Of a DNA stretch of 64,000 nt, positions 1 through 1,558 are shown one piece after another. The stretch is from positions 47,611 through 111,610 of the forward strand of contig CAUEQD010000006.1 in NCBI GenBank assembly GCA_959019945.1, in the 5' to 3' direction. The stretch is from an uncultured Collinsella sp. GTDB taxonomy: Bacteria; Actinomycetota; Coriobacteriia; Coriobacteriales; Coriobacteriaceae. Below the pieces are notes generated by a model, which saw only the letters and a program-made list of their open reading frames with translations, was not told where the DNA came from and ran no database searches. Position 1 is the first letter of the stretch. Every line of letters begins with the position of its first letter. The translations under genes were made by a program, and so were the position numbers.

Positions 1-2
1 AG

Positions 3-836
3 GAGCAGCTGCAGTTCATTAATGTCATCCGTCAGATTGATTTTGCCAAGATCGAAAAGCCAAGTTCCCTCTGCATTTATTCCGCAGCAGGGTGCAAGAT
101 GGCAGTTTGGGGAAATAACGAAGTCTCGGCCGCAGTCGGAACAGTGTGACGCTAAGAGACGTGCCTGCGGTCGCGCATTTTGGTTGAGACTGAGATTTCG
201 TGCGCGCCCAATTCGCGTGATGCCTGAATCCGTGATGAAGCGGGCTGGCGCGCTGGGAGGCTGGGTATTATCGTCGAACTGATGCAGGAGTGGAATGTCT
301 TCATTAAGGTACTTGCACAGGTATGCCGGGCTGATTGTACTGTTGTTATCTCTGCAGACCGCAATGCCGAGAGTTTGAAAGCCCATTGTTTTTGCTGAGT
401 TCCAAAGGTTGCGCACATTCTCGAGGGGTATATATTCCGCATGAAAGTCGTCGCAGCTGATATTGATTTCGTCAAGGCCACATGACTTCAATTCGTTGAG
501 GAACGTTTCTGCGTCTCTTTCGCTTTTTGCCCACCACGCATTCGTTACAATTCGAGTAAAGAGTCCTAAAGAATTCGCATATGCGATGGCCTCGAGAAGG
601 TCATCGCCAAGAAGGGTGCATTCTCCGCCCGTAAACACAACAACACCACTTCCGACGCATACTTCGGCGAAGCTATCGATGAATTGCCGCATTTGGGGAA
701 GAGTAAGCCTGTCACTGTTGTTCGGAGTGCAGCTCATCAGACAATGATCACACACAGCGCCACATTTATATGTTAGGATAAATGTCAGCATTCGAGGTCT
801 GCGGAACAGCACGTGCTGCGAGCTTTCGGAAATCAT
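3..836 (-). CDS. Radical SAM enzyme with C-terminal SPASM/twitch-like Cys cluster (partial, 3' end outside window)
   Basis: The minus-strand frame is open from ATG 836 to the window edge, so it is absent from the ORF track; I checked triplet by triplet and found no stops. The ATG overlaps the upstream stop as ATGA (836-833). Motifs: YKCGAVCDHC (CxxxCxxC), GGECTLL, ISCDDFH, and a late HCSDCGRDFVISPNCHLAPCCG cluster. Confidence 0.8.
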   Translation of the reverse strand, partial: MISESSQHVLFRRPRMLTFILTYKCGAVCDHCLMSCTPNNSDRLTLPQMRQFIDSFAEVCVGSGVVVFTGGECTLLGDDLLEAIAYANSLGLFTRIVTNAWWAKSERDAETFLNELKSCGLDEINISCDDFHAEYIPLENVRNLWNSAKTMGFQTLGIAVCRDNNSTISPAYLCKYLNEDIPLLHQFDDNTQPPSAPARFITDSGITRIGRARNLSLNQNARPQARLLASHCSDCGRDFVISPNCHLAPCCGINAEGTWLFDLGKINLTDDINELQLL

Positions 837-1558
837 GCCGCGAGCAAACGGGCGTCGGTGATTACCAAGGTGCCTTCGTTCTCGGAGTAAGTAACTTCGA
901 ATTCGACGGAGCGATAATACCCGCGGGCGACCCCATTGGAAGCCCCTTCGGGGTTGATGGTATTGGAGCTGGAATTCTTGATTGCTGTTTTAAGCATGGC
1001 TGCTTGCCTCGCTGCACTCAAGCCCTCTTGATCAAATTTCCTGAAAACAGAAGTTTGTTTGTACGATTCCGATAGTTCAACAACATCAGGTTTGTTCATA
1101 AAAATAGCCGATCCATAGCCCATTGTGTTGACGTCGTACTTAAGGTTGGCGTTGTTTTGAGCATTCGCGTTTGCGTTTGCCATTCCGTTTGCGTTCAGAA
1201 TGATGTTTGCGTTCGTTACTGCGTTTGCATTAAGTACAACGTTTACGAGAGGTATCGTTTGCGGCTCAGCTTCGTTGTCCTCGTCATAATATGCAAGTTG
1301 GATACGACGATATACTGCGCGTGCAACGGGGACACGCGCCTCCTTTTCGGTTGACTCCACCAGTTCGTACAGAGAGACTTTTCGATTTCCCGCTTTGATT
1401 TGGAGGTCTGTAATTCCATATTTCTGGAATACGGCACGAGGCTGAGCTTCGAAATCGCGTCTTGCGTCGGTAGATTGTTCCGCGTCCGCGACCAGTTTTT
1501 CAAGGATGCTAAGCTGGGACTGTATTGAGAGTTCGTTTAGGTGGTTCACATTGTCCAT
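833..1558 (-). CDS. 241-aa protein: Nif11/NHLP-like N-terminal leader-like domain, Asn/Ala-repeat core, unknown C-terminal domain; candidate radical-SAM substrate
   Basis: GGAGGT sits 7 nt upstream of ATG 1558; the track start at 1573 is a TTG inside the SD. The N-terminus LSILEKLVADAEQ...AVFQKYGITDLQ resembles Nif11/NHLP leaders. The core is VNVVLNANAVTNANIILNANGMANANANAQNNANL. There is no Cys. The stop overlaps the start of the downstream rSAM gene. Confidence 0.7.
   Translation of the reverse strand: MDNVNHLNELSIQSQLSILEKLVADAEQSTDARRDFEAQPRAVFQKYGITDLQIKAGNRKVSLYELVESTEKEARVPVARAVYRRIQLAYYDEDNEAEPQTIPLVNVVLNANAVTNANIILNANGMANANANAQNNANLKYDVNTMGYGSAIFMNKPDVVELSESYKQTSVFRKFDQEGLSAARQAAMLKTAIKNSSSNTINPEGASNGVARGYYRSVEFEVTYSENEGTLVITDARLLAA
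1142..1258 (-). repeat. Imperfect hexamer repeat (GTTTGC/GTTnnn on plus strand) encoding the Asn-Ala repeat core
   Basis: GTTTGC occurs at 1169, 1175, 1187, 1205 and 1223, with related GTTGGC, GTTCAG and GTTTAC. On the minus strand this reads AAC-GCx repeated. Confidence 0.6.

Follow-up and report, generated by a model that had tools for sequence, protein, structure and literature searches.

The locus

A stretch of 64,000 nucleotides from an uncultured Collinsella sp. (assembly GCA_959019945.1, contig CAUEQD010000006.1, positions 47,611 to 111,610; here called the window) begins with two overlapping genes on the minus strand, one for a protein of 241 amino acids (aa) and one for a radical S-adenosylmethionine (radical-SAM) enzyme. 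A first-pass annotation, made from the letters alone, had proposed that these form a precursor/maturase pair of the kind that makes peptides which are ribosomally synthesised and then modified post-translationally (RiPPs). The features of the locus, in window coordinates, are:

1..836, minus strand: radical-SAM enzyme of YydG/EpeE type; 5' 278 of 359 codons, the other 81 lying past the left edge
833..1558, minus strand: precursor-like 241-aa protein (N-terminal domain, hexad-repeat core and DUF5969 domain)
833..836, minus strand: ATGA overlap of the 241-aa gene stop with the radical-SAM gene start, read from the sequence; translational coupling
1567..1571, minus strand: GGAGG Shine-Dalgarno sequence, 8 nt 5' of ATG 1558, read from the sequence

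When sequence and translation are read, there is an open frame of 278 codons, with no stop, between ATG 836 and base 1, and it carries YKCGAVCDHC (C25/C29/C32) together with HCSDCGRDFVISPNCHLAPCCG; the frame, the motif and the late Cys cluster had all been described correctly. The annotation had also called the enzyme missing from the list of open reading frames (ORFs). It is right that there is no stop within the window, but the gene is not missing and merely extends past the edge, giving a full enzyme of 359 aa in identical contigs (L001 10723-11802). The 241-aa ORF upstream on the same strand starts at ATG 1558 and stops at TGA 833-835, and the ATG of the radical-SAM gene overlaps this TGA in the sequence ATGA (836-833), as had been noted. 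The relatives L011 and L016 have an identical 4-nt overlap of stop and start. The ORF lister had chosen TTG 1573 as the start of the 241-aa gene; this start was rejected, since the TTG falls within the Shine-Dalgarno sequence of ATG 1558; the latter is favoured because GGAGG stands 8 nt upstream.

Exactly the same 241-aa protein occurs in 4467 indexed assembly blocks, and 10 long contigs that contain it have the same neighbourhood. Because of this recurrence, and because the gene order is found again in distant taxa, the 241-aa gene and the radical-SAM gene are a real gene pair. In the identical contigs the radical-SAM gene is followed, with an 8-nt overlap, by a gene for a 380-aa methyltransferase past the left window edge, which bears out the expectation of more tailoring genes there; after it come the convergent housekeeping genes for a PPDK regulator, glyS and glyQ. 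The order of the cassette is a divergent DUF1648 membrane protein, the 241-aa precursor, the YydG/EpeE-type radical-SAM enzyme and an AerE/PoyE-type methyltransferase. An Rfam scan of the whole window found no RNA families, and promoter and terminator scans around the operon and its 3' end gave counts no higher than in shuffled sequence.

The 241-aa protein

The near relatives of the 241-aa protein found by a word-indexed search all come from Collinsella. An exhaustive HMMER search over 1.84 billion cluster representatives gave 51 matches, about 35 of them full-length (200-270 aa, 25-45% identity). Their alignment falls into four parts. An N-terminal domain leads, through an acidic linker with Pro, to a hypervariable (A/V)NAN repeat, and after a near-invariant Gly comes a C-terminal domain. 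The first-pass annotation described correctly the N-terminal segment of the window protein, its acidic stretch (YYDEDNEAEP) and its Asn/Ala-rich stretch. AlphaFold2 predicts two confident domains (predicted local distance difference test, pLDDT, 70-95) around disordered residues 92-156 (pLDDT <50). The globular sequence that had been suspected after the core is borne out by a pLDDT of 77-86 for residues 157-241, against <50 in the core. The parts of the protein are:

1274..1558, minus strand: N-terminal folded domain, residues 1-95; AlphaFold2 mean pLDDT 83.8, predicted template modelling score 0.73; candidate leader/recognition domain
1394..1462, minus strand: residues 33-55 (RRDFEAQPRAVFQKYGITDLQIK), motif F..(D/N)P...L...G..D; resembles NHLP-clan leaders
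1118..1249, minus strand: predicted core, residues 104-147, LVNVVLNANAVTNANIILNANGMANANANAQNNANLKYDVNTMG; family alignment and AlphaFold2 pLDDT <50
1142..1231, minus strand: five hexads, residues 110-139 (NANAVT NANIIL NANGMA NANANA QNNANL), from spacing analysis
842..1081, minus strand: DUF5969 domain, residues 160-239; Pfam PF19394, 32.8 bits, above the cutoff of 25

The N-terminal domain of the family has the motif F..DP...L...G..D and a helix ARVPVAR, and P40 and D51 of the window protein are nearly invariant. Its AlphaFold2 elements are H2-28, H30-38, H40-46, E53-56 and E59-62, then two further helices; the NHLP fold determined by nuclear magnetic resonance (NMR) has three helices then a beta-hairpin, the same element order as the first five of these (PMC12537861). 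Foldseek comparison of the domain model with the PDB gave nothing with E <1, and at E 2-9 only nitrile hydratase alpha (7qoy, 3wvd), the proteusin precursor NMR structure 8tb1 and SonA. When 30 family members were compared with NCBIfam and Pfam, none matched a Nif11 model (TIGR03798 or Pfam Nif11) at E <=1, so that the Nif11-like leader proposed at first is not supported. The NHLP part of that proposal fares better in the relatives than in the window protein, which matches no NHLP model of NCBIfam. NF038399 (Os1348 NHLP-clan) was matched by 7 of the 30 relatives (best E 4.4e-5, 13-20 bits against a cutoff of 40), TIGR04509 by four and TIGR04351 by two, all below cutoff, and TIGR03793 by a single member at E 0.1. 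All of the sub-threshold NHLP-clan matches fall on the equivalent N-terminal motif, and a remote NHLP-clan kinship of this domain is plausible, if unproven. On the same motif six of the 30 relatives have a sub-threshold match to IniB_NTERM (NF038175, the mycobacterial IniB N-terminal domain), as does the window protein at E 0.058 (residues 29-55, window 1394-1474). IniB-type proteins, which also have long low-complexity repeats, may have the same leader-like domain.

The DUF5969 model was matched by 25 of the 30 family members (best E 8e-23), with an invariant R184 in the motif LSxxRQxALLK. Foldseek with the full-length model gave RelE/HigB-like and NTF2-like matches to the C-terminal domain, none of them significant (E >=0.13), and a literature search on DUF5969 found no papers.

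The core repeat

The core is flanked by the conserved Pro-rich acidic linker and the near-invariant G147. In the aligned core stretch of the window protein 13 of 14 Asn stand on one parity, that is, at an even distance from one another. Spacing statistics were drawn from 29 distinct family cores, with expectation taken from shuffles. Odd Asn-Asn spacings were observed 1-4 times against about 60 expected (z about -10), while spacing 6 is the main peak (201 against 60 expected, z +24) and spacing 12 the next (z +16), these z-scores overstating independence in that the sequences are related by descent. A single parity holds for every Asn in 27 of the 29 members, and the hexad consensus is N(84%)-A-N(74%)-A/V-x-A. 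The cores vary greatly in length and sequence, yet hold this register.

A comparable arrangement is known from two channel-forming peptides. In polytheonamide B, N-methyl-Asn residues at 16, 22 and 28 form an H-bonded ladder along a beta-helix of which GNINVN makes one turn (PMC11285071). Aeronamide is methylated at Asn25, 31, 37, 41 and 43 by AerE, which takes only D-Asn (PMC11285071).

The 241-aa protein has no Cys and no Trp. Thioether and Lys-Trp crosslinks are excluded for this reason, and sactipeptide and streptide-type chemistry was rejected on the same ground.

The radical-SAM enzyme

The top NCBIfam match of the enzyme is TIGR04078 (rSAM_yydG), at 96.6 bits over residues 23-165 only; several maturases with the SPASM domain are among the low-scoring matches, through the common radical-SAM core only. 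Pfam matched the full-length enzyme with PF04055 alone, and there was no match in it to the SPASM domain (PF13186/TIGR04085, seven-Cys motif, two auxiliary clusters). A single-sequence search found one PDB relative, YydG (8ai1). A family alignment and profile were made from 31 homologues of 28-54% identity, from which two features stand out:

741..764, minus strand: the Cys residues of CxxxCxxC, nearly invariant in the 31 homologues
84..143, minus strand: first part of a twitch-like (T-SPASM) region, with C232 and the invariant C250-C251; C313 and C316 lie past the window edge

C232, C250, C251, C313 and C316 are invariant in this alignment. The profile matches YydG 8ai1 at full length with E 2e-31, the next fold family standing at 4e-7; it aligns over residues 35-337 with the five C-terminal Cys in register. 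This alignment of the C-terminal half comes only from the family profile, as phmmer with that half alone found nothing in the PDB. The CC pair (C250-C251) aligns with 'YPCCS' of YydG, and its mapping to the native C222/C223 presumes a 25-residue tag on the PDB chain. The extended twitch ('T-SPASM') domain of EpeE/YydG contains one auxiliary cluster, and Cys223 serves as H-atom donor (PMC8326336, PMC13012085), and the five conserved C-terminal Cys are consistent with one such cluster plus an H-donor Cys. The full-length profile match, the register of the Cys and the lack of a SPASM match therefore place the enzyme, as judged by homology, in the EpeE/YydG lineage as a distant but full-length member and not among canonical SPASM crosslinkers. 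The label 'rSAM/SPASM' first given to it was imprecise in this respect. B12-dependent C-methylation was also considered and was rejected, the radical-SAM gene having no B12-binding domain.

The methyltransferase

NCBIfam matches of the 380-aa methyltransferase are HemK/PrmC-like and all below cutoff. The best PDB matches are 7RC2-7RC6 (E 2e-6, 30 bits, residues 123-255), all structures of AerE, the enzyme that N-gamma-methylates D-Asn of aeronamide, a channel-forming proteusin (PMC9060474). GenN ranks after AerE among the PDB matches, just as it does for AerE itself. The essential catalytic residues Y137, D141 and N231 of AerE align with Y124, D128 and N217; these three, which lie within the motifs LY(F/Y)GxDS and NPPL, are kept by 22 of the 24 methyltransferases of the family.

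Distribution of the cassette

The cassette, with its precursor, radical-SAM enzyme and methyltransferase, is found again in Actinomycetota, Bacillota and Proteobacteria, usually with SdpI/DUF1648 genes and an ATP-binding cassette (ABC) exporter alongside. At radical-SAM identities of 55-32% the hosts include Collinsella relatives, Bombiscardovia, Propionibacteriaceae, Streptosporangiaceae and Actinosynnema as well as Cellulomonas, Eggerthellaceae, Lachnospiraceae, Ruminococcus and Proteobacteria. In three loci, L011 (55%), L012 (40%) and L013 (38%, Bombiscardovia apis), the precursor stands before and the methyltransferase after the radical-SAM homologue. The pairing of precursor and maturase that had been proposed is upheld by these data, relatives of the 241-aa protein adjoining relatives of the enzyme in every context examined. 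When 25 distant radical-SAM loci were scanned with hidden Markov models, the precursor family was found in 18 and the methyltransferase in 16, which speaks clearly for genomic linkage; the seven loci with no precursor-family ORF include three truncated by contig ends. No other conserved small ORF was seen in the contexts examined.

DUF1648 or SdpI-family genes occur in L011, L012, L014, L016 and L017 (DUF1648 specifically in L011 and L012) and an ABC transporter lies inside the cassette in L012, L013, L017 and L018. Their counterparts in the window are:

1730..2383, plus strand: DUF1648 membrane protein, 217 aa, divergent; Pfam PF07853, E 1.1e-12; candidate immunity protein
6701..8320, plus strand: ABC exporter (transmembrane domain and ATPase); candidate exporter

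The latter has no C39 peptidase domain; its assignment to the cassette is tentative, and it may be shared with a neighbouring radical-SAM module described below. Cassettes of the Propionibacteriaceae type have two or three extra SdpI genes and an Abhydrolase_1/Abhydrolase_4 protein of 525-550 aa, which adjoins the precursor in some cassettes and could be the leader protease of the family. One relative cassette is located on a conjugative element. Literature searches found no paper on a proteusin in Collinsella and, within the library searched, none describing the 241-aa protein or its cassette family.

Spread among Collinsella

For this comparison one genome was taken per GTDB species. A radical-SAM gene of >=97% identity was found at 54 loci in Collinsella. 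One of these belongs to an isolate bearing the label C. aerofaciens ATCC 25986; that type strain carries the cassette. Across more than 50 Collinsella species the precursor, the radical-SAM gene, the methyltransferase and the downstream intergenic DNA have a median identity of 99.8-99.9%, whereas for the adjacent glyS the median in the same representatives is 94.3% and the highest value 96.0%. This contrast indicates recent inter-species transfer or recombination. Identity in the PPDK-regulator gene is bimodal, as would be expected if recombination tracts end inside it. All 53 full-length copies of the radical-SAM gene are intact, as are 49 of 51 copies of the methyltransferase gene. Positions 1 to ~9700 of the window have a GC content of 48-52%, compared with ~60% for the remainder.

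A proposed product and its relation to known systems

The finding is real and of more interest than first described. Its two most informative features, which the first-pass annotation did not contain, are the hexad periodicity of Asn and the AerE-like methyltransferase. That the cassette consists of a substrate and two maturases is highly probable. We lean, with less assurance, towards the view that the two genes are the 5' two-thirds of a mobile RiPP-like toxin cassette, a proteusin/epipeptide hybrid that would make a D/L-alternating, N-methyl-Asn-bearing beta-helical membrane peptide. The specific chemistry, alternate epimerisation with Asn N-methylation, is proposed because the Asn pattern, the AerE-like methyltransferase and a radical-SAM enzyme of an epimerase family occur together, and appears on balance the probable one.

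The steps of such a pathway can be predicted from these homologies. The radical-SAM enzyme would abstract the C-alpha H and give an H back from Cys251, which would invert alternate residues of the N-A-N-x-x-x hexad repeat to D. The methyltransferase would N-methylate the side-chain amides of the resulting D-Asn. The D/L-alternating segment of ~40 residues could form a beta-6.3-type helix with N-methyl-Asn ladders at six-residue spacing, and such a product would target membranes in the manner of polytheonamide and aeronamide. The remotely NHLP-like N-terminal domain and the DUF5969 domain would serve for recognition, solubilising or masking, and a protease would remove both. An ABC transporter would export the product and the DUF1648/SdpI-type membrane protein would protect the producer.

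The closest parallels are the channel-forming proteusins, namely the polytheonamides of 'Ca. Entotheonella' (poy) and aeronamide of Microvirgula (aer). Like these the cassette has a long, folded, N-terminal leader-like domain, an Asn-rich core with one Asn parity and a six-residue repeat, a radical-SAM enzyme of an epimerase family in the operon, and a class-I methyltransferase of its own, to which AerE is the closest among solved structures and in which Tyr-x3-Asp and the Asn of the NPP motif are kept. Unlike these, its candidate epimerase is of YydG/EpeE and not PoyD type, with an auxiliary cluster and no RRE. There is no significant homology between the YydG/EpeE and PoyD families (PMC8326336). 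The cassette also differs from proteusins in having no B12 radical-SAM C-methyltransferases, dehydratase or hydroxylase, in a leader that is only sub-threshold NHLP-like, in the folded DUF5969 domain after the core, in its SdpI/DUF1648 genes, in a Leu in place of AerE Phe234 and in its hosts, gut Actinomycetota and Bacillota. Proteusins as a class combine an NHLP leader with a PoyD-type epimerase; here the leader scores below cutoff and the sole radical-SAM enzyme of the cassette is YydG-type.

With the epipeptides (B. subtilis epeXEPAB = yydFGHIJ) the cassette has in common a radical-SAM enzyme of the same family at profile level (E 2e-31), with its CxxxCxxC, its Cys set for a single-cluster twitch-like domain and a CC pair holding the H-donor Cys, as well as an ABC transporter in the locus and the expectation of a membrane-active product. 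It departs from them in an identity of ~30% over the N-terminal half only, with a score under the TIGR04078 cutoff, in a 241-aa repeat-core substrate as opposed to a 49-aa peptide with two epimerised residues, in having no EpeP-type protease and in its additional amide N-methyltransferase. Precursors of the NHLP clan (TIGR03793, TIGR04509, NF038399, TIGR04351) have the same F..DP...L...G..D motif and three helices then a beta-hairpin; unlike them the 241-aa protein has two extra helices after the hairpin, an internal core and no GG cleavage motif, and the cassette no C39-peptidase transporter. In placing a DUF1648 or SdpI polytopic membrane protein beside a secreted-toxin-like gene the cassette resembles SdpC/SdpI of B. 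subtilis, but the SdpC toxin is unrelated to the 241-aa protein, and an immunity role is suggested here by family name and synteny only.

Few ribosomal products are as heavily modified as the beta-helical channel peptides of polytheonamide type, which, to our knowledge, have so far been tied to PoyD-type epimerases in sponge symbionts and a few Proteobacteria. It is possible, though as yet a tentative view, that the cassette represents a widespread RiPP class of Actinomycetota, Bacillota and Proteobacteria, near-ubiquitous in human-gut Collinsella, in which an EpeE-type epimerase recruited independently of PoyD and an AerE-like methyltransferase build polytheonamide-like beta-helical ion-channel peptides from the middle of a two-domain protein. 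If so, EpeE-type enzyme, AerE-like methyltransferase and a leader-core-follower precursor would form a second, evolutionarily separate route, a convergent assembly of the same peptide architecture. EpeE-type chemistry would be extended from two sites to iterative alternating epimerisation, and DUF5969 would for the first time have a function, that of a follower or masking domain at the C-terminus. Collinsella aerofaciens, among the most prevalent human gut Actinomycetota, would possess a potent membrane-active toxin with its immunity, and gut commensals would produce pore formers of gramicidin/polytheonamide type, with conjugative elements carrying them from species to species. The near-identity of the cassette against a housekeeping divergence of ~6% suggests active horizontal exchange, which may shape strain competition in the gut.

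Points of difficulty and alternative explanations

Several observations weigh against the proposed beta-helical peptide. A conserved, folded 85-aa domain follows the core, an arrangement that we know of in no proteusin, and fusions of the N-terminal domain and core to long proteins in Clostridia (described below) argue that the product may stay a protein. The Collinsella cassette lacks a protease gene, and there is no established cleavage motif. The radical-SAM enzyme, at 96.6 bits, falls well below the TIGR04078 equivalog cutoff of 300 bits, and the YydG substrate residues known so far are Val and Ile in a 49-aa peptide, with no iterative alternating pattern. The AerE match is weak (30 bits) and covers the Rossmann half only; AerE Phe234, which makes a cation-pi contact to Na+, is Leu or Met throughout the cassette methyltransferases; and cores of the Propionibacteriaceae type have few Asn, yet the methyltransferase is retained. 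Among 50 Collinsella species representatives, seven have a disrupted precursor (two by nonsense changes, five by a 2-nt deletion), and the variable codons of the precursor comprise 37 non-synonymous against 15 synonymous, for which reasons selection on it may be weak.

The difficulties over release could be met if the enzymology is as proposed and no free peptide is made, the whole modified protein, or core plus DUF5969, being the functional form, for instance as a membrane-inserting or surface protein with a post-translational beta-helix. Conservation of the folded DUF5969 domain with its invariant R184, the clostridial fusions of 790-956 aa with their transmembrane helix, and a Collinsella cassette with neither a protease nor a peptidase domain in its ABC transporter would all fit. 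Set against them are the Abhydrolase_1/Abhydrolase_4 protein of 525-550 aa beside the precursor in some cassettes, a possible peptidase, the SdpI-type immunity genes and exporters that typify secreted toxins, and the fact that known beta-helical channel peptides work as free peptides; this reading seems to us rather unlikely. It is less probable again, and quite doubtful, that the 241-aa protein plays an accessory part, as scaffold, chaperone or immunity factor, in which the Asn/Ala stretch would be a low-complexity linker, the enzymes having some other substrate. Such a role would suit the predicted disorder of the core, the representatives in which the precursor is disrupted and the enzymes intact, and the seven of 25 radical-SAM loci with no detectable precursor-family ORF, contig ends having truncated three of these. 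A passive linker, though, would not hold Asn parity and six-residue spacing at 25-45% identity; the 241-aa gene is translationally coupled to that of the enzyme, the cassettes showed no other small conserved ORF, and the methyltransferase retains the Asn-amide-activating residues of AerE.

The reading closest to the first-pass annotation, a Nif11/NHLP-leader precursor with a radical-SAM/SPASM crosslinking enzyme (giving a sactipeptide, ranthipeptide or C-C/C-O crosslink), is very unlikely. The Cys-rich C-terminal half of the enzyme, the weak NHLP-clan matches among relatives and the SPASM maturases among its low-scoring NCBIfam matches, these last through the radical-SAM core only, may be counted for it. 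The precursor offers neither Cys nor Trp, the enzyme has no SPASM match and its five conserved C-terminal Cys align one-to-one with YydG, no family member matches Nif11, and crosslinking would leave unexplained both the even-only, period-6 Asn pattern and the AerE-like methyltransferase. We also give very little credence to the cassette being in decay in Collinsella, a remnant with no function today that hitch-hikes on mobile DNA. Precursor pseudogenes and deletion alleles (162-aa fusion proteins) do exist in many strains, the GC content is foreign (48-52% against ~60% for the host) and pieces of the cassette adjoin conjugation genes. The three genes are nevertheless intact in the window and in 43/50 species representatives, the radical-SAM gene being intact in 53/53 and the methyltransferase in 49/51 copies; the exact protein is found in thousands of assemblies, and near-identity between species bespeaks recent spread and not old decay.

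Variants and neighbouring features

In Clostridia the N-terminal domain and an ANAN core are fused to 600-800 residues comprising Gly-rich repeats (GGNTIAGHGGNTIAG...), a transmembrane segment and Cys-rich repeats. The fusion ORFs, encoding proteins of 790-956 aa, are:

L083 1211-3850
L087 3071-5941
L090 3497-5869

L083 also has the radical-SAM enzyme and the methyltransferase fused in one 741-aa ORF. In a cassette of Propionibacteriaceae (L014 2971-5004) an extra 677-aa radical-SAM protein is encoded directly upstream of the YydG-like enzyme.

The Collinsella representatives with a disrupted precursor are L044, L053, L051, L054, L056, L064 and L072; the 2-nt deletion is shared and falls after codon 62, and the radical-SAM gene is intact in all seven. 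In some metagenome variants (P0014) the precursor frame is left and re-entered between codons ~31 and 62. A 1.75-kb piece (window 1299-3052 / L098 5604-7260, ~99% identity), containing precursor codons 1-87, the intergenic region, the DUF1648 gene and ~670 bp more, adjoins MobL and TraG/VirD4 conjugation genes in a different Collinsella contig. As a context lookup showed, the many 162-aa 'truncated' precursor homologues derive from this second, partial copy beside conjugation genes; their GC-rich tail has no match in the window or in L001. The second copy probably explains the frequent assembly breaks just upstream of or inside the precursor gene.

The island, with both of its radical-SAM modules, sits between ppdK (9726-12503) and the PPDK-regulator gene past the left edge. 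The first module (window 3955-6299, minus strand) has genes for a PqqD-domain protein (5196-6299), for a radical-SAM enzyme of 348 aa (4150-5196) and for a small peptide of 60 aa (3955-4137), which is Val/Ala-rich and contains ...VPVVVNFAAVVDNVVAAVYDAVVAAYAFWY...; the ABC exporter with no peptidase domain (6701-8320) lies alongside. As cassettes of other genera do not have it, this module seems to be an independent RiPP module on the same island. Window 2400-3900 is a GC-rich (~59%) stretch within the low-GC island, with a 162/169-aa ORF at 2863-3372 on the plus strand that has no family match; other contigs have transposases (Transposase_mut, IS110) inserted close by.

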